DNA of 64,000 bases from Chryseobacterium gleum (GCA_945903645.1 CAMDOM010000001.1:118491-182490); one strand, 5' to 3'; numbered from the stretch's first letter, positions 2,003 to 47,262 are shown. A program made the numbers and translations. Notes: generated by a model from the sequence alone, not told the origin.

Positions 2003-2785
2003 ATGCTACTATGGCGTGCCAAACAGTATGTGAACTACCTAAGACGGGCCAAAAACAGGCATGGCATCCATTCGCCTTTTGTCTACAGTTTGCTCGATAC
2101 GGTTATTTACAGTTCAGAGAATCTCGAAGCGTATGGCATTGCCGAAGGTCTGAAAGATGCCCTATTGCGCGACACTAGAACCATCACCATTACCGATTTG
2201 GGAGCAGGTTCAAGCATATCTACTTCAAACCAGCGCAAGGTGAAGAACATTGCTCGAAGCTCTGCTAAAGAGCTGAAATACGGACGGTTGTTACACCGTA
2301 TGGTTACTCATTTTCAACCCAAGGAAATGGTGGAGTTGGGTACTTCGCTTGGCGTTAGTGCGCTGTATCAGGCAACTGGAAATTCAACAGGAAGGCTTAC
2401 CACATTTGAAGGCTGTCCGGAAACCGCAACCATTGCGCGCGAAAATTTTAAGAAAACCAATTCTGCTAACGTCACGCTGATTGAAGGTAACTTCGATGCA
2501 ACGCTGCAATCACATCTAAACGCTATTCCAAAATTGGATTGGTTCTTTAACGATGGTAATCATCGCAAAGAACCTACGTTGCGCTATTTCGAGTGGTGTT
2601 TGCAAAAAGCTCATTCCGAAACCATCCTCATCTTTGACGATATTTATTGGTCGAAAGAAATGGCTGAAGCTTGGGAGATTATCAAAGCACACGAACGAGT
2701 TTCGGTTACGCTAGATCTTTTTCAGATTGGAATTGTTTTCCTTCGTGAAGGACAAGCCAAGCAAAATTTTGTAATTCGCTACTGA
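2003..2785 (+). CDS. class I SAM-dependent methyltransferase
   Basis: Motif I E-x-G-x-x-x-G (VELGTSLGVS) and an acidic motif II (LIFDDIYW). Size is 260 aa. Confidence 0.6.
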   Translation: MLLWRAKQYVNYLRRAKNRHGIHSPFVYSLLDTVIYSSENLEAYGIAEGLKDALLRDTRTITITDLGAGSSISTSNQRKVKNIARSSAKELKYGRLLHRMVTHFQPKEMVELGTSLGVSALYQATGNSTGRLTTFEGCPETATIARENFKKTNSANVTLIEGNFDATLQSHLNAIPKLDWFFNDGNHRKEPTLRYFEWCLQKAHSETILIFDDIYWSKEMAEAWEIIKAHERVSVTLDLFQIGIVFLREGQAKQNFVIRY

Positions 2786-2841
2786 TAAGCCCACCTCGAA
2801 CTTTGAACCTCGAACCTTAAACGTTGAACTAACTTAGCCCC

Positions 2842-3555
2842 ATGGCAGATGTAATTCGCACAGTAAACTTGGCAAAAGTCTATCGCATGGGCACCGAAGA
2901 GGTGCATGCCCTGCGCGACATTAGCATCACAATCAAAAAAGGGGAGTATGTGGCATTGATGGGACCTTCGGGTTCGGGCAAGTCTACCCTTATGAATATG
3001 TTGGGCTGTTTGGATACGCCATCATCAGGGCAATATTTCCTTAGTGAACAGGACGTTAGCCAGATGAACGACAATCAACTTGCGGAGGTGCGCAACAAAG
3101 AAATTGGGTTCGTTTTCCAAACCTTCAATTTATTGCCGCGCTCCACTGCGTTAGACAATGTTTGTCTTCCTCTTATTTATGCTGGCAAGGCAAAGAAAGA
3201 ACGCGTTGTACGCGGGCAGCAAGTGCTAGAGCAGGTAGGTTTGGGCGATAGAATGAGCCACCGTCCAAACGAACTTTCGGGTGGACAACGGCAGCGTGTG
3301 GCTGTAGCTCGGGCTTTGGTAAATCATCCTGCTATGTTATTAGCTGATGAGCCCACAGGAAATTTGGACTCGAAAACGTCCATCGAAATAATGGGCTTAT
3401 TCGAAGAAATTCACAGCAATGGCAACACCATTGTGGTAGTGACCCACGAAGAAGAAATTGCACAACATGCCCACCGTATTATTCGCCTAAAGGATGGATT
3501 GGTTGAAAGCGACACGTTGAACCAAAACATCACAACGGTGTTACACAAGGCATGA
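2842..3555 (+). CDS. ABC transporter ATP-binding protein (LolD/MacB-type)
   Basis: Walker [13 protein letters not shown] signature [15 protein letters not shown], Walker [12 protein letters not shown] and the H-loop. A 4-bp overlap with the next gene suggests co-transcription. Confidence 0.9.
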
Positions 3556-5553: not shown

Positions 5554-6666
5554 CTATGCCTTTACAGCAACAACTTTTAGTGGTTTTCCAAGCACATAAA
5601 GTTCTTTGGTATGATTCCAAATGGCGGCAAAGAAATTTCCATAAACATGGTAAGGAAGATTGTATTCCTCAGCTGTACGTTTCACAATTTTGCTCAAATG
5701 GCGGTAATGCACATGGCTCACATTCGGAAACAAATGATGCTCTATTTGGTAGTTTAGTCCGCCTACAAACCATGAGAAAACACGACTCTTTGGGCTAAAA
5801 TTGCAGGTGGTTTGCAATTGATGTACAAACCAATTGGTCTCCATTCTTCCGCTATCGGGCGCTGTGGGAAAATCTGCTTGGGGCATCACGTGGGCCGATT
5901 GGAAAATACTGGAAAGAATAATTCCTGCTATAAAATGCATACTCAAAAAGAACAGTAGCGTAACCCACCAAGAAACAGGAGAAAGCAGCATGGGCAGCAC
6001 CAACATCATCGTGTAATACACCAATTTGGCCATAGCCAATCGCGAAAATTGCCACGCAAAAATTCCTTTGCCTTTGGCGGTTAATCCCTTTGCCCTGAAT
6101 TCAAGAAATTGCTTAAAATCCTTTACCGTTGCCCAGTTTAGTGTCATCAATCCATAAAGAAACCATGCGTAGATGTATTGCACGCGGTGATAAAACCTAC
6201 GTTTGCTATGGGGCGAAAGGCGTAGAATTCCTCCCGTGTCAATATCACCATCGTGGCCATCAATGTTAGTATAGCTGTGGTGGAGCACATTGTGCTGAAT
6301 TTTCCAAACAAACGAACTTCCGCCCACAATATTGATGAGATAGCCAATCCATTGGTTCATGGTGGCACTTTGCGAATACGATCCGTGATTTGCATCATGC
6401 ATAATGCTCATGCCAATACCCGCCATCCCAAATGCCATAAAAACCCAAAGTATAAACAGCAGAGCAGGATGAACCACAACTCCAGTTAGCATCAATCCAT
6501 AGGGAATGAGGTAGATTGCCAAAAGCGTCACAGTCTTCATCACCATATTGGCATTACCATAGCGCGAAATGTCTTTTTGCTTGAAATACTCCGCCACACG
6601 GTCGCGCAGTGTATTCACAAATTCCATGTCGTTGGTAGTAGAAAATTTGACGCGTTTAATGGTCAT
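5554..6666 (-). CDS. membrane fatty-acid desaturase, front-end/Delta6-like family (often annotated linoleoyl-CoA desaturase)
   Basis: Three histidine boxes HDANHGSYS, HNVLHHSYTN and QIEHHLFP. The Q-x-x-HH third box is typical of front-end desaturases. Multiple TM helices and no cytochrome b5 fusion. Confidence 0.85.
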   Translation of the reverse strand: MTIKRVKFSTTNDMEFVNTLRDRVAEYFKQKDISRYGNANMVMKTVTLLAIYLIPYGLMLTGVVVHPALLFILWVFMAFGMAGIGMSIMHDANHGSYSQSATMNQWIGYLINIVGGSSFVWKIQHNVLHHSYTNIDGHDGDIDTGGILRLSPHSKRRFYHRVQYIYAWFLYGLMTLNWATVKDFKQFLEFRAKGLTAKGKGIFAWQFSRLAMAKLVYYTMMLVLPMLLSPVSWWVTLLFFLSMHFIAGIILSSIFQSAHVMPQADFPTAPDSGRMETNWFVHQLQTTCNFSPKSRVFSWFVGGLNYQIEHHLFPNVSHVHYRHLSKIVKRTAEEYNLPYHVYGNFFAAIWNHTKELYVLGKPLKVVAVKA

Positions 6667-6809
6667 AGCGTTGGGATGGTTGGAGTAGGGCGAAGGTAGT
6701 TTTCGCTTTGAGGATTCGAGTTGTCAATAATCAATTCTGGCCATGATATTTTGAGGGAATGCTCATCCGGTTTTAGGATTCAATTTTAAGCAATGAGTAC
6801 CTTTCGCCC

Positions 6810-8504
6810 ATGCTATGTGTAGTTGCTTTTCTCTGTCTTTTGCTACCTTTTGGTCTCGCTGCCCAACAAACCGAGCACAACCAAAATATCTGGTACGGAG
6901 AAACGGTCTATCAAATTTATCCGCGCTCGTTTTACGATACGAATGGAGATGGCATTGGTGACCTCAATGGCATCATCGCCAAACTCGACCACATTCAGCA
7001 ACTGGGCTTTGGCGCAATTTGGATTTCGCCTTTCTTCCTGAGTCCGCAGCAAGATTTTGGGTACGACATCAGCGACTACCGTAGCATTGCACCCGAGTAT
7101 GGCGATATGCAAACCTGTGAACAGCTTATTGTCGAAGTACACGAGCGGGGTATGCGCATCATTTTCGATTTGGTAATGAATCACACTAGCAATCAACACG
7201 CGTGGTTCAAAGAATCGACCTCATCGCGCACAAATTCTAAAGCCGATTGGTATGTATGGCATGATGGCAAAGGCAAATCGGGCAAGCGCCCTCCAACCAA
7301 TTGGAAAGCCTCGATTGGTGGCCAAGGTTGGCAGTGGAACGAAACACGAAAACAATTTTATTGGGCATCTTTTCTACCCTTTCAACCCGACCTCAATTAT
7401 CAAAACCCAGAGGTGAAAAACGCCATGCTAGATGTGGCGCGCTTCTGGCTTGCCAAAGGAGTAGATGGCTTTCGGCTCGACATTTTTAACTCTATATACG
7501 AAGACAGTGCCCTGCTCAACAATCCTCCAAGTCTGCGCATTATTCCAAGCGAAGAAAACCCCGATGGCTTTTTTCAGCAAGCCAAATACAACGTCAATCA
7601 GCCGCAAAGCTTTGTTTTTGCTACCGAATTGCGTGCCGTGGTCGATTCGTTCACAAGTCCACCACGGTTTCTTGTAGGCGAAGTGTTTGGCAACACCGCC
7701 ACTATCAAGCAATTTTGCGAATACAAAGGCAAAAGCGGACTGCATTCCGTTTTTCTCTTTCAAACACTTGGAACGAAGTTTAGCGCCAAAGCTTGGCATG
7801 AAGTGGTAAGAGGTTTCGAGCACGATTTTCCAGCTCCGCTCATTCCTACCTACGTGTATAGCAACCACGACCGCAAGCGCAGCATTACATCTGTGGGCAA
7901 CGACCCCGCGAAGGCCAAACTTCTTGCTTTAATGCAAATGACCTTGCGTGGCATTCTGTTCACCTACTATGGCGAAGAACTGGGAATTCCCAAGCCTATT
8001 TTACCCATGCGCTCGGGTCTCGATCCTTTGGCGCAAAAGTATCGCTCCATTCCGCAGTTCATGGTGAACATGACGGGCGAATCCTTGAATCGTGATGAAT
8101 GCCGTACACCCATGTTGTGGGACAGCACAGCGAATGCAGGATTCACCACAAAGGCCACGCCATGGCTTCCTGTTTCCGAAAATTATAAAGAAATAAACGC
8201 TTCTGCTCAGTGGAGCGACAGCAACTCATTACTTCGTTTCTATGCCGAAGTCCTAAAACTGCGCAATGCTACCAATGCCTTGCGTTTCGGCACGTTGCAA
8301 ATAGCAGAAAACCGCTGCGATAAGGATGTGTTTGCCTACTACCGCACTTTGGGCAATGAGACTTTCCTTGTTTTGCTCAATTTCTCGAAGCATGAAAAAA
8401 CATTCGTGGTGCCCAACGGAATCATTGAACTAACCACAGTGACTCTTCCTAAACAGAATATACTACAATCTTTTGAGGGAAGGGTAGTGAAATTGTATAA
8501 GTAG
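6810..8504 (+). CDS. glycoside hydrolase family 13 alpha-glucosidase / oligo-1,6-glucosidase-like, secreted
   Basis: Signal peptide. GH13 conserved regions I (FDLVMNHTS), II (GVDGFRLDIF, nucleophile Asp), III (VGEVFG, acid/base Glu) and IV (YSNHD). The N-terminus YQIYPRSFYDTNGDGIGDLNGI is typical of the oligo-1,6-glucosidase subgroup. Confidence 0.9.
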   Translation: MLCVVAFLCLLLPFGLAAQQTEHNQNIWYGETVYQIYPRSFYDTNGDGIGDLNGIIAKLDHIQQLGFGAIWISPFFLSPQQDFGYDISDYRSIAPEYGDMQTCEQLIVEVHERGMRIIFDLVMNHTSNQHAWFKESTSSRTNSKADWYVWHDGKGKSGKRPPTNWKASIGGQGWQWNETRKQFYWASFLPFQPDLNYQNPEVKNAMLDVARFWLAKGVDGFRLDIFNSIYEDSALLNNPPSLRIIPSEENPDGFFQQAKYNVNQPQSFVFATELRAVVDSFTSPPRFLVGEVFGNTATIKQFCEYKGKSGLHSVFLFQTLGTKFSAKAWHEVVRGFEHDFPAPLIPTYVYSNHDRKRSITSVGNDPAKAKLLALMQMTLRGILFTYYGEELGIPKPILPMRSGLDPLAQKYRSIPQFMVNMTGESLNRDECRTPMLWDSTANAGFTTKATPWLPVSENYKEINASAQWSDSNSLLRFYAEVLKLRNATNALRFGTLQIAENRCDKDVFAYYRTLGNETFLVLLNFSKHEKTFVVPNGIIELTTVTLPKQNILQSFEGRVVKLYK

Positions 8505-8698: not shown

Positions 8699-10003
8699 AT
8701 GCGCACTTTTATACTTGCTTTGTGTTTAATTCTAGCGTTTGGCGCTCAGGCCCAACAATCGCCCATCAAACCAACTGCACCAGTGTTGGTGAGTTACGAA
8801 TTGGTGAAGTCGCATACTTCGTCCACCTTAAAAACCCTATGGAAAGAAAAAGGTGTTCCCCGTATCGCCCTACCGGTAAAACTTGGTGTTGACATCTACG
8901 AAGTGGTATATCAAGTGCCTTGGATAGATGGAACCATGCGCCAAGCTTCTGGCATTTATTTCGTTCCAAAAACGGATAAAGCGATGCCTTTTATGATGTA
9001 TGGTCATGGCACTCGAATAGATAAAAACCGAGAGATTACTGACAAAGATGCCCAGCAGTTCATCTGCACCGCTTTCGCTACCGATGGTTATGCCACCATG
9101 TTTCCAGACTACTACGGCATTGGCAAAGGCGAAGGCAAGCATCTGTATCAACATGCATGGTCAGAGGCCCAATCATTTATCTACATGTTGTATGCAGTTG
9201 ACGAAATGAATAAGCAAATAAATGTGAAGCACGATAGTCAGCTATTTCTAACAGGCTATTCGCAAGGTGGCCATGCCTCTTTTGCAGCGCACAAATATTT
9301 AGAAGAGCTAAACGACCCACGATTCAAAATCACGGCATCTTCCCCCATGTCTGGTGCATACGATATGACTGGCGCTCAAGAGAAATACATGTTTCAAGAA
9401 TACCCACGTCCGTTCTATCTCCCATATTTGTTATTGTCCTATCAGCATGCCTACAACATTTTGGATTTGAAAAATCCGTACGAGATTTTTAGGTCTCCTT
9501 TCGATACGCTGTTTCCACCCTACTTCGAAAACAATGCTACGCGCACGCTGGAAGAGCTCAATAAACACATGCCCAAAATCCCTAAAGACGTAGTGAAGGA
9601 AGTATATGTCGATGCCTACGTTAACGACCCCGACTTTGCATTCAGGAAGCGCTTGATGGAAAACAACCTCACCGATTGGAAACCTGTCGCTCCCGTGCAG
9701 CTTTGCTATTGCAAAGGCGATAGAGAAGTGAACTATCAAAACTCGGAAGTGGCGCACCAAAAAATGACCAGCCTAGGTGTAACCACCGTTAAGCTCCTTA
9801 ACCTAAGTGACGAGCTCGACCACAATACCTGTGCTGCATTTGCCATGTTGGCTACCAAAGGCTATTTCGACCGTTTTAAGGACAAAGGAGATAACCCGAA
9901 GATGAAAAACATATCAGGATTCAAGAAATTCCTTATCGGTTTCATAAAACGTAAGGAAGAACGGAAATACAAAAAAGAGCATTCAGATAAAGGTTACATT
10001 TAA
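8699..10003 (+). CDS. secreted alpha/beta-hydrolase, LIP-like lipase family
   Basis: Signal peptide MRTFILALCLILAFGAQA, so the start is probably 8699 rather than the track start at 8663. Nucleophile elbow G-Y-S-Q-G (TGYSQGGHAS). A Lys-rich C-terminal tail. Confidence 0.6.
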   Translation: MRTFILALCLILAFGAQAQQSPIKPTAPVLVSYELVKSHTSSTLKTLWKEKGVPRIALPVKLGVDIYEVVYQVPWIDGTMRQASGIYFVPKTDKAMPFMMYGHGTRIDKNREITDKDAQQFICTAFATDGYATMFPDYYGIGKGEGKHLYQHAWSEAQSFIYMLYAVDEMNKQINVKHDSQLFLTGYSQGGHASFAAHKYLEELNDPRFKITASSPMSGAYDMTGAQEKYMFQEYPRPFYLPYLLLSYQHAYNILDLKNPYEIFRSPFDTLFPPYFENNATRTLEELNKHMPKIPKDVVKEVYVDAYVNDPDFAFRKRLMENNLTDWKPVAPVQLCYCKGDREVNYQNSEVAHQKMTSLGVTTVKLLNLSDELDHNTCAAFAMLATKGYFDRFKDKGDNPKMKNISGFKKFLIGFIKRKEERKYKKEHSDKGYI

Positions 10004-10037
10004 ACTGGAATTGTTTTAAGAAGGCAATTTCCACTGA

Positions 10038-11030
10038 ATGAATCCCATAATTCCTCTCAAAATGAAATTCCTCGCTCTCGCGCTACTCCTGTCGCTTTCA
10101 TTCCAAAAAATCTTCGCGCAAAACCCCTGCGATGAACTCGCCATAGTGTCCATTCAATACAGCCCATTCACAGATACCCTCATTATTGTGGAGGTAATCA
10201 ATGCCAGCGAAGAGCTATTCAGTTATCCAGGTTTTGTTCTCATAAATACCAATGGCGATACCTTGGCCAAAGAAGTAGTCAACTATTTTGGCATTAGCGG
10301 GCCATCGGTGCATCTTCTCACGGTGCGCCCAGGTGTGGCCAATCCACTCGATAACTTTCAGGGAACACTAGAACTCCACACTGACTTTTTCGGAAGCTTA
10401 GCCTGTTCTTGGCCAATCAACCAAGGATTGTGTGCATCCCAAACCTGTGACGATGTTGTAATTAAGTTCGAAAACTGGGGCGGTGCCCTCGTGCTTGGTG
10501 ATTTTGACTGGAGCGTGGCCGATAGTCTAGGAAACCAAGTAGCATCAGGCACACTAACCATGACTGTCGAAGAGCAGTATTGGAGCAACACCCTATGCCT
10601 CCCTCCAAACAGATACTGCTATCAGCTGCAAGCCCTAGGCGAACCATCTGGCGGAGGTCCAACCATGTTCGTGCAGTCAGGCGAATGGTTTGGCCATCAA
10701 TCCATATCGCAATACTTCAGTTGGGAAGACGGTACTACAATGCAGGTGCCCTTCTATCTGCATTGCATAGCGCAAGAGCCAAACGCCATCAGCGAAACCA
10801 CCATTCAATCGCAACCAATAATTCTCCAAAACGGGGCATCTACCACCGTCCAATCAAGCGCTCCGATTACAACGTTGCTGCTCTTTGCCACTGATGGAAA
10901 GCTAATTGAACGCTGGAGTCCGAACAGAACCGCATTCACTATTCCAACCCCACTTCCCACAGGATTGTACGTGCTTCAAGTACATACCACTTTGGGCAAT
11001 GCTGCTATGAAATTGGTGTTGGGCCAATAA
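10038..11030 (+). CDS. secreted protein with T9SS type-A C-terminal sorting domain
   Basis: Signal peptide; an alternative start is at 10062 (MKFLALALLL...). C-terminal roughly 80 aa ending GLYVLQVHTTLGNAAMKLVLGQ match the Por_Secre_tail pattern. The 3' end abuts the IS3 remnant. Confidence 0.6.
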   Translation: MNPIIPLKMKFLALALLLSLSFQKIFAQNPCDELAIVSIQYSPFTDTLIIVEVINASEELFSYPGFVLINTNGDTLAKEVVNYFGISGPSVHLLTVRPGVANPLDNFQGTLELHTDFFGSLACSWPINQGLCASQTCDDVVIKFENWGGALVLGDFDWSVADSLGNQVASGTLTMTVEEQYWSNTLCLPPNRYCYQLQALGEPSGGGPTMFVQSGEWFGHQSISQYFSWEDGTTMQVPFYLHCIAQEPNAISETTIQSQPIILQNGASTTVQSSAPITTLLLFATDGKLIERWSPNRTAFTIPTPLPTGLYVLQVHTTLGNAAMKLVLGQ

Positions 11031-42785: not shown

Positions 42786-43077
42786 TACGCTATTGTTCGC
42801 TATCAATTCGGTAGCTACTTTTGCGCACGTTCTTTGCATTCTTACTTATCCAGAAAGACGGAGGGATTAGGCCCGCTGATGTCTTGGCAACCCCAATTGT
42901 TGGAAGGTGCCAAATCCTGCTCTAAGCGAAAGCTAGGAGAGAGATAGGTTGTAGCTCCACTGTGGACTTCTAACTTGACACCATCATGCCCATCCAACAC
43001 CCATTGGAAGGGCATTTTTGTTTGGAATAAGTGATGTGTGATGCGCGAAAAATGATGTGAATCTTAATTTTTGAACA

Positions 43078-44112
43078 GTGAACAGAACAGAACTTTTACA
43101 AGACGCCCTCAGCAAACGCATCCTTGTGTTGGATGGAGCGATGGGCACCATGATACAGCGCCACACGCTAACGGAGGAGGATTTTCGTGGCGATCGGTTC
43201 AAGTGGCATTCCCATCCGCTGAAAGGCAACAATGACCTGCTTAGCATCACGCGGCCCGACATCATCAAGGGTATTCATGCTGCGTATTTTGAAGCAGGGG
43301 CCGACATTGCCGAAACCAACACGTTTAGCGGAACCACCATCGCGCAAGCAGATTATCATTTGCAAGATGCGGTGTATGACATCAACTTTCAAAGCGCTAA
43401 AATTGCCCGAGAGGTGGCCGATGAGTTCACCGCTCGCGAACCGCACAAGCCGCGCTTTGTGGCGGGCAGCATTGGCCCAACCAACCGCACGGCCAGCCTT
43501 TCGCCCGATGTGAACGACCCAGGGTTTAGAGCCGTAACCTTCAACGAGCTGAAGGATGCCTACATCTTCCAAGTGAAAGGGCTGATGGATGGTGGCGCAG
43601 ATATTCTGATGGTGGAAACCGTGTTCGATACGCTCAATGCCAAAGCCGCGCTCTTCGGCATTGAGGAATACTTCGAGCAGATTGGAAGGCGCATTCCCAT
43701 CATGGTATCGGGCACCATTACCGATGCCAGCGGGCGCACCCTAAGCGGACAGACCACCGAGGCATTCCTTATTTCCGTATCTCATATACCACTGCTTTCG
43801 GTTGGTTTGAATTGTGCTCTTGGTGCTTCTGCACTGCGCCCCTATTTGCAAGTGTTGGCCAAGAACGCCCCCTTTGCAATAAGCGCCCACCCGAATGCTG
43901 GCCTACCCAACGAATTTGGCGAGTATGATGAGACCCCAGAAATAATGGCTCCCCAAATAGAGGATTTCCTAAAAGAGAATCTCATAAACATTATCGGTGG
44001 TTGCTGTGGCACCACTCCCGACCACATTCGGGCCATTGCTAAAGTTGCGGCCAAGTACAAACCAAGGAAGAAGTCAGATATCAGTAGTCAGATGTCAGAG
44101 GCTACTGGGTAA
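43078..44112 (+). CDS. metH: methionine synthase, N-terminal homocysteine S-methyltransferase (Hcy-binding) module, encoded as a separate ORF
   Basis: Collinear with E. coli MetH residues 1 to about 340 ([11 protein letters not shown]; C-terminal Zn ligands GGCCGTTP). The ORF runs into the inserted element and stops at the TAA at 44110-12. Confidence 0.85.
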
Positions 44113-44561
44113 AAAATTAGATTTCAGATGTCAGACATTGGATGTCAGAGTAATACGTTAAGCAAATGCACCATTTAGAACAACTCAAGGTTTGGAAATT
44201 GGCGATGGAGATTGCGAAGGATGTGTATATCATCACCAAAGATTTTCCTTCTGAAGAAAAATTTGGTTTGACATCACAAGTTCGAAGGGCGGCTGTTTCT
44301 ATTGCCAGTAATATCGCAGAAGGAGCGGGCAGATATTCAGATAAGGAATTTGCCCAATTTCTTTCCATCGCATCAGGATCTTCTTTTGAAGTTAGAACTT
44401 AGCTCCTCCTTTCTGAACAACTTGGTTTTTCTTCCAATGAAAATTTAATAGATGTATTGAACAAACTTTCAGAACTAGAACTCATGATTCTAGGACTTCG
44501 TAAATCATTAAATACCCCATAATAGGCCATTTTCCAAGACCCATTTAATCTGACATCTGAT
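44088..44561. mobile_element. about 470-bp insertion in the metH interdomain linker, flanked by a 12-bp perfect inverted repeat, carrying an Avd-like gene
   Basis: tcagatgtcaga occurs at 44088-99 and 44124-35, with a partial third copy gatgtcagag at 44141-50. Its exact reverse complement tctgacatctga occurs at 44549-60. The ATG of the downstream metH ORF (44560) lies at the edge of the right repeat. Confidence 0.55.
44166..44513 (+). pseudogene. four-helix-bundle protein (23S rRNA intervening-sequence protein / Avd-like family) with an in-frame TAG
   Basis: MHHLEQLKVWKLAMEIAKDVYIITKDFPSEEKFGLTSQVRRAAVSIASNIAEGAGRY...FEVRT-[TAG at 44400-02]-QLLLSEQLGFSSNENLIDVLNKLSELELMILGLRKSLNTP. The full-length family pattern is present if TAG is read through. 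Confidence 0.65.
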
Positions 44562-47262
44562 GTCTGAAATCCATAACTCAATGTCTGAATCTAATATACC
44601 ACCATTGCAACTCTCGGGACTGGAACCTCTTCAAATCTATGAGGGGTCGAACTTCATCAACATAGGGGAGCGCACCAATGTGACCGGGTCGCGCATGTTC
44701 CTCCGTTTAATAAAGGAAGGAAAGTATGAAGACGCGCTGGTAGTGGCCCGCGACCAAGTGGAAGGAGGTGCTCAAATTTTGGACGTGAACATGGACGAGG
44801 GCATGATCGATGGCAAAGAGGCCATGGTCAAGTTCCTGCATCTTATTGCTTCAGAGCCCGATATTTCCCGCATTCCAATTATGATTGACAGCTCGAAATG
44901 GGAGATTATCGAGGCAGGGCTGCAATGTGTGCAGGGCAAGAGTGTGGTTAATTCCATCAGCCTGAAAGAAGGCGAGGAACAGTTTATCCATCACGCCAAA
45001 TTGGTCAAGCGTTATGGTGCGGCAGTAATCGTCATGGCGTTTGACGAGGCTGGTCAAGCCGATAGCTATGAGCGTAGGATAGAAATCTGTAAACGCTGCT
45101 ACGACATTTTGGTGAATGTCGTGGGCTTCCCGCGTCAGGACATAATCTTCGACCCGAACATCTTTCCTGTGGCTACGGGCATGGAGGAACACAACAACAA
45201 CGCTGTAGACTTTTTCCGCGCCACAGCTTGGATAAAGGAAAACTTGCCAGGGGCTAAAGTAAGTGGAGGCGTCAGCAATGTATCGTTCTCTTTCCGCGGC
45301 AACGACCCTGTGCGCGAGGCCATGCACTCGGCTTTCCTCTACCACGGCATCAAAGCGGGCATGGACATGGGCATCGTGAACCCGGCCATGCTCGAAGTGT
45401 ACGACCAGATTCCGAAAGAACTTTTGGAGCGGGTGGAGGATGTGCTGCTCAACCGCAGGGCCGATGCCACCGAGCGTCTGCTCGAATTTGCTGAAAGCTA
45501 CAAAGGCGTAAAGAAAGATGCCAAAGAAGACCTCGAATGGCGGTCTTTGCCCGTTCGCGAAAGATTAAGCCACGCCTTAGTGAAAGGTATTGTGGAATTT
45601 ATTGAGCCAGATGTGGAGGAATGTCGCCTGTCGATGGCCAAGCCATTGCATGTTATCGAAGGCCCGCTGATGGATGGAATGAACATCGTTGGCGACCTTT
45701 TTGGAGCAGGAAAGATGTTCCTGCCGCAAGTAGTAAAAAGTGCACGGGTGATGAAAAAGGCTGTCGCGTATCTCCTCCCATTCATGGAGCAAGATGTGGA
45801 CGGTTCGGCATCGAAGTCGGGCAAAGTGCTGATGGCCACCGTGAAGGGCGATGTGCATGACATCGGAAAGAATATCGTGGGAGTGGTGCTTGCCTGCAAT
45901 AACTACGAGGTGATTGACATGGGTGTAATGGTGCCCGCAGAGAAGATTCTTGCGGAGGCCAAGGCTCAGAATGTTGATGTCATCGGGCTTAGCGGTCTCA
46001 TCACACCTTCGTTGGACGAGATGGTGCATTTGGCAAAAGAGATGCAACGGAGTGGCTTCACCATACCATTGCTCATTGGTGGTGCAACCACTTCAAGGGT
46101 GCATACAGCGGTGAAGATTGACAGTCATTACACCAACGATCAGGCTGTGCACGTGCTCGATGCTTCGCGGGCGGTGACGGTGGTAGAAAGGCTTCTTAGT
46201 GCCGACAAGAAGGCTTATGTGGACGGCATCAAGGCCGAATATGCCCAAATGCGCGAGACCCATGCCCGCAAACAGGGCGAGAAGAACTACGTGACGCTTG
46301 CCGATGCCCGCGCCAATCGTTTCCCTATCACGTGGAAGGCTGAGGACATCCATCGCCCGAATAAACTGGGCATCACAACGATGAGCGACTTCCCGCTTGC
46401 TGAATTGGTACCCTACATCGACTGGACACCCTTCTTCCAAACGTGGGAGCTGGCTGGCCGCTATCCGCGCATCTTAGAAGATGAAGTGGTGGGAGAGGAA
46501 GCCAAACGGCTATTCGCGGATGCACAGGCGATGCTCAACAAGATTGTTTCGGAGAAATGGCTCACCGCAAATGGAGTGATTGGCCTTTGGCCCGCCAATG
46601 CCGTGGGGGATGATATGGAGGTTTATGATTCCACCGACCCGACAAAATCCATCGGTAAGTTCCATTCCCTCCGTCAACAAGGCAAGAAGGGCACGGACGT
46701 TCCGAACATCGCATTGGCCGATTATCTCGCTCCAAACGAAACGGGACTTAAGGACTATTTGGGCGGATTTGTGGTCACCACAGGCATCGGCATTGAGGAG
46801 AAGCTGACCGAGTTCGCTGCCGACCATGACGACTACAGCAGTATCATGCTCAAGGCGCTGGCCGACCGATTGGCCGAGGCATTTGCCGAGAAACTGCACG
46901 AGATTGTACGCAAGGAACTTTGGGGCTACGCTTCGGATGAGTCATTGGACAACGAGAGTCTCATCAAGGAAAAATACCGTGGCATCCGTCCCGCGCCCGG
47001 TTATCCCGCCTGTCCGGATCACACCGAGAAACCTGAGCTGTTCCGACTGCTTAATGCCACAGAGAACACGGGTGCCATCCTCACCGAATCCATGGCGATG
47101 ATGCCAGCAGCGGCTGTAAGCGGTTGGTATTTCGGGCATCCCGAATCGAAATACTTCGGCCTTGGTAAGATTACCAAAGATCAGGTGGAGGATTACGCCT
47201 GGCGCAAGGGAATGACATTGGACGAGGCAGAGCGGTGGTTGAGTCCTGCGTTGAGTTATTGA
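44560..47262 (+). CDS. metH: methionine synthase, pterin-binding + cobalamin-binding + AdoMet-activation modules, encoded as a separate ORF
   Basis: Collinear with E. coli MetH from ...RLSGLEPLNI onward (here [11 protein letters not shown]) to the C-terminus. B12-binding D-x-H-x-x-G ([11 protein letters not shown]). Reactivation domain ...[15 protein letters not shown]...VSGWYF. Confidence 0.9.

Follow-up and report, generated by a model that had tools for sequence, protein, structure and literature searches.

The Coxiella intervening sequence (IVS) is a 428-nt selfish element located in helix 45 of 23S ribosomal RNA (rRNA), bounded by a 28-bp terminal stem and cut by RNase III at the first repeat (PMC4990558). 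Its S23p open reading frame (ORF) is prone to decay and is preceded by tandem GACAGAT heptamers that vary in number, and the origin and function of 23S IVSs and S23p proteins were still unclear more than 25 years after their discovery (PMC4990558). Here, we analyse a 64-kb stretch of Chryseobacterium gleum DNA (GCA_945903645.1 CAMDOM010000001.1:118491-182490; the whole stretch is referred to as the window) in which a cassette of this construction lies between two halves of metH. It is likely that metH was split ancestrally and works as two genes under an S-adenosylmethionine (SAM) riboswitch, with the junction between them occupied by an IVS-type cassette. The identity of the locus can be assigned with similar or slightly greater confidence, and an RNA-level mechanism for the cassette is plausible on our analysis.

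Several components of this arrangement have been described separately. Two-part and three-part split forms of MetH, with modules encoded by separate genes that are needed together, have been reported (Price et al., PMC7857596; bioRxiv 10.1101/192971), and a two-part metH is on record in Sphingomonas koreensis (PMC7857596). Direct repeats of the heptamer TAACTGA lie in intergenic spacers of Beggiatoaceae, Cyanobacteria and Bacteroidetes, often directly upstream of start codons, in a report that makes no mention of IVSs, S23p or four-helix proteins (PMC4679880). A published Flavobacterium columnare table lists gmk, a four helix bundle protein and nadD consecutively. The Avd and PF05635 proteins belong to a shared four-helix-bundle fold family (PMC10053308). 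Split metH, intergenic heptamer arrays in Bacteroidetes and cyanobacteria, and the routine annotation of PF05635 genes outside rRNA are thus already known. In the literature, of which our coverage was incomplete, we found no description linking heptamer arrays to PF05635 genes outside rRNA, and none of a design in which inverse heptamer arrays, with a fixed polarity, enclose a PF05635 gene and fit between the stop and start codons of an operon.

The genes metH-N and metH-C are co-oriented on the + strand of the window, with foreign DNA between them. metH-N (43078..44112) encodes a 344-aa homocysteine (Hcy) S-methyltransferase, the homocysteine-binding subunit, in which a domain search finds PF02574 alone (E 1e-98). 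metH-C (44560..47262) encodes a 900-aa subunit with pterin-binding, B12-cap, B12-binding and AdoMet-activation regions, matching PF00809 (Pterin_bind), PF02607 (B12-binding_2), PF02310 (B12-binding) and PF02965 (Met_synt_B12). On the NCBIfam metH equivalog model NF007024, metH-N covers positions 8-344 and metH-C covers 342-1231 (1557 bits), with an overlap or gap of at most three positions, and the break therefore falls exactly at the linker between the Hcy and pterin domains with nothing missing. An earlier reading of this DNA (the sequence-only reading) had assigned both ORFs to these portions of MetH and placed a repeat-flanked foreign segment at the linker, and the domain searches and an alignment to an empty site bear this out. 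The motifs GLNCALG and GGCCGTTP are present in metH-N, and their cysteines (C246, C309 and C310), known in MetH as the zinc ligands of the Hcy domain, are invariant in an alignment of 23 sequences; the B12-binding motif (DxHxxG) of metH-C reads DVHDIGKN. The leader of metH-N contains an intact SAM-I riboswitch aptamer (42843..42950, + strand; Rfam RF00162, 81 bits versus a gathering score of 44.4, full model 1-108), which is the sole Rfam match in the whole 64-kb window.

The extent of the foreign DNA is defined by two metagenome contigs, L084 and L085 (related loci are designated by L numbers), which match the window's metH-N core at 98% identity (with dS, the synonymous divergence, of 0.8) and are split with no cassette. 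Homology to these contigs stops with ...AAACCAAGG (44067) and starts again with ATACCACCATTGCAA (44596), such that 528 bp of the window (44068..44595, + strand), comprising the whole cassette and its arms, stand in place of a native junction of 42 bp (GGTTATGGAAACTGTTGCCGCCTAATGAGTTTAGAGATGAAA). The sequence-only reading had noted about 450 bp of non-MetH DNA between the halves; the segment is indeed not MetH, but it is not anonymous, and holds a PF05635 gene that was missed. Its repeat-flanked layout was also correctly recognised, but there are two left arrays, and the insertion replaces native sequence.

The cassette gene, which we refer to as fhb (44166..44522, + strand), has 118 codons, is oriented in the same direction as metH, and encodes an S23p-family four-helix-bundle protein, or 23S rRNA IVS protein. 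It contains an in-frame TAG (44400-44402), and its read-through translation matches PF05635 (E 1.3e-38) and TIGR02436 (E 6e-37), with Xcc0516 (PDB 2GSC, E 2e-23) as the closest solved structure. An intact copy in L171 is 87% identical, including the part beyond the TAG, and the codon is CAG in L172, a 97% identical relative sequenced in another run; the TAG is therefore private to the window, and is either recent or a sequencing error. The cassette gene is also truncated in L005 (8865-9089) and L015. No second copy of fhb or of the cassette was found in the 64-kb window. Reading the insert as an intein or intron was rejected, as no such domains are present and both metH halves have their own stop and start, and a prophage remnant was likewise rejected.

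The arms of the cassette are tandem arrays of 7-nt units. Left array 1 (44073..44100, + strand; GTCAGAT ATCAGTA GTCAGAT GTCAGAG; TRF period 7/14) lies within the coding tail of metH-N, where it encodes SDISSQMSE, and left array 2 (44119..44153, + strand; TTCAGAT GTCAGAC ATTGGAT GTCAGAG) is intergenic and starts 6 nt past the metH-N stop. The right arm (44545..44598, + strand; ATCTGAC ATCTGAT GTCTGAA and further units) is an inverse heptamer array with an outer pairing segment at 44583-44598. The last approximately 12 codons of metH-N are encoded by the left repeat array, the metH-N stop (TAA, 44110-44112) lies just inside the insertion, and both candidate starts of metH-C are within the right arm; the sequence-only reading had located this TAA and the ATG at 44560 in the same way, and a second ATG at 44581 fits the start of relatives better. 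The 12-mer TCAGATGTCAGA is present three times in the 64 kb, at 44088 and 44124 (+) and at 44549 (-), all at the metH junction, compared to an expectation of 0.31, and none of 100 shuffles reached three copies.

The arms are strongly complementary. The best inverted pair (44127-44153 and 44545-44571) is 27 nt long and 85% complementary, and the distance from arm to arm is 453 nt. Predicted duplexes with the right arm have energies of -41.8 kcal/mol for array 1 (-19.4 +/- 3.9 for shuffles) and -42.0 kcal/mol for array 2 (-16.5 +/- 3.5 for shuffles), and the 571-nt region folds with a z-score of -2.9. A scan of the region and of the whole window with Rfam gave no known RNA family over the arms and no rRNA match. 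The arms of this lineage follow the patterns (TCAGA NN)n on the left and (TCTGA NN)n on the right, with the right-arm pattern kept in six relatives. Array 1 matches the single left arm of L002-type relatives, and array 2 has its homologue in the left arm of L171.

A solo direct array of 7-nt units, of the same kind of repeat as in the cassette arms and with no enclosed gene, is located elsewhere in the window at 2793-2830 (+ strand; ACCTCGA ACTTTGA ACCTCGA ACCTTAA ACGTTGA). It takes up most of the 56 nt that separate two ORFs of the same orientation, 2003..2785 and 2842..3555, and ends 12 nt ahead of the downstream ATG.

Two members of the same family are found inside rRNA. The loci L127 (1-504) and L114 (689-1051) each carry an fhb relative, about 50% identical, within a 23S rRNA gene from bacteria. 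Heptamer arrays (AGGGGCG/AGAGGCG) and the inverse arrays flank the element in L127, and the match to the rRNA model picks up again with GGUAGGAGAGCGU (model position ~1227). Both are true 23S IVSs and have the same design as the metH cassette.

The order metH-N, fhb, metH-C, with an intact fhb of 116-118 aa, is shared by L002, L166-L171 and L172. The window and L171 are 87% identical in both metH-N and fhb, and this equality points to co-inheritance of cassette and host. Over longer distances the occupancy is patchy. We scored 80 species representatives for fused versus split metH, of which 53 are split, and nine of these 53 have fhb in the metH junction, scattered on the tree. Sister pairs differ in its presence, with the junction fhb present in one and absent in the other, respectively, for Winogradskyella L035 and L044, Polaribacter L034 and L011, L007 and L003, and L039 and L023. 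Furthermore, metH-N is approximately 81% identical for both L002 and L004, although the window fhb is 69% identical to that of L002 and only about 47% identical to that of L004, in which the repeat unit also differs (CTACTGG). Cassettes have therefore been gained, lost or exchanged at the metH junction more than once. The arms of other metH cassettes have the same build with other units, including GTCGACA in L039, GATAGTT in L035, GGTCGAT/AGTCTAT in L007, and GTAGCAA/GTATTTA in L058.

The junction also holds other insertions, and the cassette gene is found at other positions in the met operon. Between the metH halves there is an IS200-like Y1 transposase flanked by hairpins in L052 (6124-6624), a fatty-acid desaturase in three Chryseobacterium species (L027, L038 and L043, ~6020-7183), QueF in L026 (6180-6629), and GNAT and ABM genes in L013 (6000-6769). 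In L006 (4992-5178) the junction consists of long heptamer arrays only (CAAAGTT/TAAAGTT, then AAGAAGT), and in L021 (5996-6091), L047 (5999-6074) and L049 (6011-6097) it has short hairpins of heptamer-like inverted units with no gene; these four may be cassette remnants or gene-less versions of it. The cassette gene itself is located between metH-C and metF in L003 (Roseivirga sp. 4D4; 9768-10133), after a fused metH in L058 (8706-9089), where the arms are 31 nt and near-perfect, and upstream of metH-N in L043 (4634-5023). The metH junction is an ordinary intercistronic spacer that collects insertions.

A scan of metagenomes with a four-sequence fhb alignment yielded 80 loci with 43-59% identity, 74 of them with both flanks. 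Arms were scored by local alignment of one flank to the reverse complement of the other against a cross-locus null; this replaced RNAduplex on 110/130-nt flanks, which discriminated poorly because of long spurious interior loops. The inverted-repeat score reaches the 95th percentile of the null or more in 46 of 74 loci, and the 99th or more in 16. Self-matching of the 70-nt fhb flanks at lag 7 is 0.36 upstream and 0.40 downstream, and at lag 14 is 0.34 and 0.36, compared to ~0.25-0.29 for other lags and controls; lag 7 is the best lag in 46 of 79 upstream and 44 of 76 downstream flanks, but in only 12 of 131 distal controls.

These cassettes are oriented and positioned in a consistent manner. 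In 60 loci fhb runs in the direction of the gene upstream of it, and in nine it runs against it. C makes up only 8% of the left arm and G only 9% of the right arm, with fewer C than G in the left arm at 38 of 40 loci and the reverse at none. The upstream stop codon is a median of 4 nt outside the left arm and the first downstream ATG a median of 6 nt outside the right arm, the ATG following the arm in 31 of 33 loci, mostly by 1-8 nt. Half of the left arms have stops in all three frames, and only three of 40 right arms contain an ATG. The hosts are often pairs of cistrons for one enzyme or pathway, and include sdhA and sdhB (L110, L122 and L140), a fadB-like gene and a thiolase (L092), a thiolase and an acyl-CoA dehydrogenase (L107), and an isochorismatase and NAPRTase (L116). 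At these hosts, too, the stop upstream and the ATG downstream are only a few nucleotides away from the ends of the arms.

These features suggest a plausible role for the arms in the transcript. Because the cassette has the same orientation as metH and a scan of the + strand from 44068 to 44595 revealed no terminator-like site, it is probably co-transcribed with metH; the consensus used in a promoter scan was that of sigma-70, which is not meaningful for Bacteroidota. In the RNA, the arms are predicted to pair as a long stem that would loop out fhb and place the stop of metH-N only a few nucleotides from the start of metH-C, and by analogy with rRNA IVSs this stem would be a likely substrate for RNase III. 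As the metH-C starts lie in the right arm, the stem could be opened by ribosomes that read through or up to the left arm when they complete metH-N, and the two cistrons could in this way stay coupled; the empty site presumably reaches the same coupling through its TAATG overlap. An element that is cut or looped without religation would persist only where continuity of the RNA is not needed, which would explain its two habitats, the terminal loops of rRNA helices and the stop/start junctions of operons, and an already split metH would be one such junction.

There are several points that weigh against this interpretation. Co-transcription, RNase III cleavage and translational coupling are all steps that we infer. 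A test of wobble asymmetry at 40 loci counted 26 G:U-type and 37 A:C-type mismatches (p 0.2), which does not discriminate between a role in RNA and one in DNA. No target-site duplication is apparent on comparison of the filled site of the window with the empty site of L084/L085 – a check that the sequence-only reading had proposed. The window also departs from the commonest design, having two left arrays, left-array stops in at most one frame, and ATG codons within the right arm.

The arms could instead function at the DNA level, as the terminal inverted repeats either of a mobile, non-autonomous element or of a cassette that is swapped by recombination, with the RNA stem being incidental. This is compatible with the RNA model, and its variants include a trans-acting enzyme that recognises or generates the arms and concerted evolution of the arms by slippage or conversion. 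It would accommodate the patchy presence of cassettes and the different ones at the same junction in the window and L004, as well as the varying heptamer copy number among Coxiella strains, the lack of excess G:U-compatible mismatches on the sense strand, and the hairpin-flanked transposase in the equivalent junction of L052. However, repeat units that differ at each locus while the arms stay complementary are a poor fit to a single sequence-specific transposase, there is no target-site duplication, and the fixed polarity of the arms (38 to 0), with stop and start codons within a few nucleotides, suggests a constraint that acts on the transcript or on translation. We therefore regard a purely DNA-level role as possible but rather unlikely. 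A transposon or miniature inverted-repeat transposable element was also rejected, since beyond the missing duplication and the arm sequences that vary by locus, there is no second copy in 64 kb.

Whichever level the arms act on, the split of metH appears to predate the cassette. The sequence-only reading proposed that the insertion itself divided a fused metH, with the arms supplying the stop and the start. The cassette does encode the present metH-N tail and stop and the metH-C start, every unit of a heptamer array shifts the frame, stops occur in all three frames in half of the left arms, and the junction is a recurrent cassette site, but the proposal is quite improbable, because relatives that match the core at 98% and have an empty site are already split. 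A two-gene metH in close relatives that lack the repeat-flanked insert is the very finding that the sequence-only reading had named as refuting it. In L084 and L085 the empty junction, ...GCCGCCTAATGAGT..., has the metH-N stop overlapping the metH-C start (TAATG), and the native metH-N tail, VMETVAA, is similar to those of empty-site relatives that are more distant. The gap from the metH-N stop to the conserved LSGLEP of metH-C is no more than 100 nt in 32 of the 53 split species, giving tight junctions with no cassette. The split representatives belong to the Flavobacteriales, Cyclobacteriaceae, Algoriphagus, Roseivirga and others, and the fused forms (26 of 80) to Dyadobacter, Chitinophaga, Sphingobacteriaceae, Hymenobacter, Bacteroidales, Ignavibacteria and others. 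When Hcy domains are placed on a neighbour-joining tree, the split forms fall into one large clade, which is old, with the fused forms basal, and no member of the fused clade has a cassette in the linker. The best 120 database relatives of metH-N are all stand-alone halves of 323-374 aa. On these sequence comparisons, a large clade of Bacteroidota inherited metH as two genes from its ancestor, and this form is older than the cassette.

A broader role for such elements in splitting genes can be suggested only tentatively. IVS-type elements, rather than being peculiar to rRNA, might be widespread intercistronic cassettes in operons for multi-subunit enzymes, such as metH-N/C, sdhA/B and fadB/A, whose arms loop out or excise while keeping coupling. 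As stops and starts in every frame can come from their arms, they could also cause gene fission – possibly including the original split of metH. An ancient fission of metH by such an element followed by its loss is conceivable, but nothing supports it.

The two metH halves are very probably a working two-subunit MetH, which was one of two outcomes envisaged by the sequence-only reading, the other being an inactivated gene. The nonsense codon in fhb does indicate some decay at the locus, but both metH halves are full length with all domains and motifs, the riboswitch is intact, and the arrangement is kept in at least seven independent assemblies. Compared to relatives that share the cassette, and where dS can be estimated, the ratio of nonsynonymous to synonymous substitution (dN/dS) is 0.02-0.06 for metH-N, ~0.03 for metH-C, and 0.07-0.18 for fhb, such that all three genes are under selection in this lineage; inactivation of metH, with the two ORFs as decaying remnants, is accordingly very improbable. 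The halves can also be unlinked, as metH-C is absent within 5-6 kb downstream of metH-N in L001, L022, L028 and L037; in L001 (GCA_964500205.1), with a metH-N 92% identical to that of the window, the next gene is a convergent TPR protein. Selection, the riboswitch and these unlinked halves support a working two-subunit MetH, in which the two polypeptides would assemble and make methionine.

Two further explanations fare worse. It is highly improbable that fhb is the Avd gene of a diversity-generating retroelement: it has weak matches to PF22296 (E 0.007, 17 bits versus a cut-off of 40) and NF033474 (18 bits versus 80) and belongs to a shared fold family, but the scores are far under the cut-offs and the neighbours, here and in all related loci, are not a reverse transcriptase or a template and variable repeat (TR/VR) pair, the window genes being the metH halves. 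Least credible of all is a repeat-driven assembly artefact, since although the junction is rich in short repeats, L172, from another sequencing run, shows the composite arms and the cassette alike with 97% identity, and six further assemblies have the same gene order; the mis-join that the sequence-only reading had allowed for can be set aside.

An ancestrally split metH with an IVS-type cassette at its junction has several implications. Split metH is an old and ordinary feature of Flavobacteriales and many Cytophagales, and annotation pipelines should not call its halves pseudogenes. The same element build as in 23S IVSs is present in many operon junctions, and questions about IVSs thus become testable outside the ribosome, including RNase III cutting of the stem, translational coupling, complementarity of the arms during turnover, and movement of the cassette. 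Cultured carriers of a metH-junction cassette are available in Winogradskyella litoriviva KMM6491 (L035) and Aquimarina sp. U1-2 (L018).

The metH cassette can be compared with several known systems. Among the hairpin elements, the Correia elements of Neisseria and the enterobacterial ERIC sequences are miniature elements that are co-transcribed in operons and cut by RNase III. They resemble the cassette in being inverted-repeat elements within transcribed spacers between genes, where processing of the RNA makes them tolerable, but have conserved terminal repeats, target-site duplications and no ORF, whereas the cassettes have arms particular to each locus and an enclosed gene. Cyanobacterial STRR repeats are intergenic direct repeats of heptamers. 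The TAACTGA arrays (PMC4679880) occur in the same phyla with 7-nt intergenic units, and solo arrays are similarly present in the window (2793-2830) and in L006; the TAACTGA arrays were described as direct and with no gene inside, unlike the two inverse arrays that bracket a PF05635 gene at metH. In a large CRISPR-discovery study, '23S rRNA IVP' is one of the proteins that accompany arrays (PMC10910872), and we speculate that heptamer arms miscalled as CRISPR arrays might account for this. The split MetH proteins of Price et al. are similar to that of the window in having modules encoded by separate genes, but those reports are not about an element between the parts.

The closest relationship is with the 23S IVSs of Coxiella burnetii and Leptospira, which encode proteins of the same family, PF05635. 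The sizes are similar (453 nt from arm to arm in the window, and 428-444 nt in Coxiella), both the window cassette and the Coxiella IVS have terminal inverted repeats that form a stem of ~27-28 bp, and the window heptamer GTCAGAT is one base removed from the GACAGAT upstream of the Coxiella ORF. Sporadic presence among close relatives and a decay-prone ORF are also shared. The window cassette differs in lying between the stop and start of a protein operon, where rRNA IVSs are located in helix 9, 25 or 45, and in having arms that overlap coding sequence; excision by RNase III is suggested here by analogy only. With its protein, stem, heptamers and size all in common, the metH insert is built like an rRNA IVS, but by its location it is not one.

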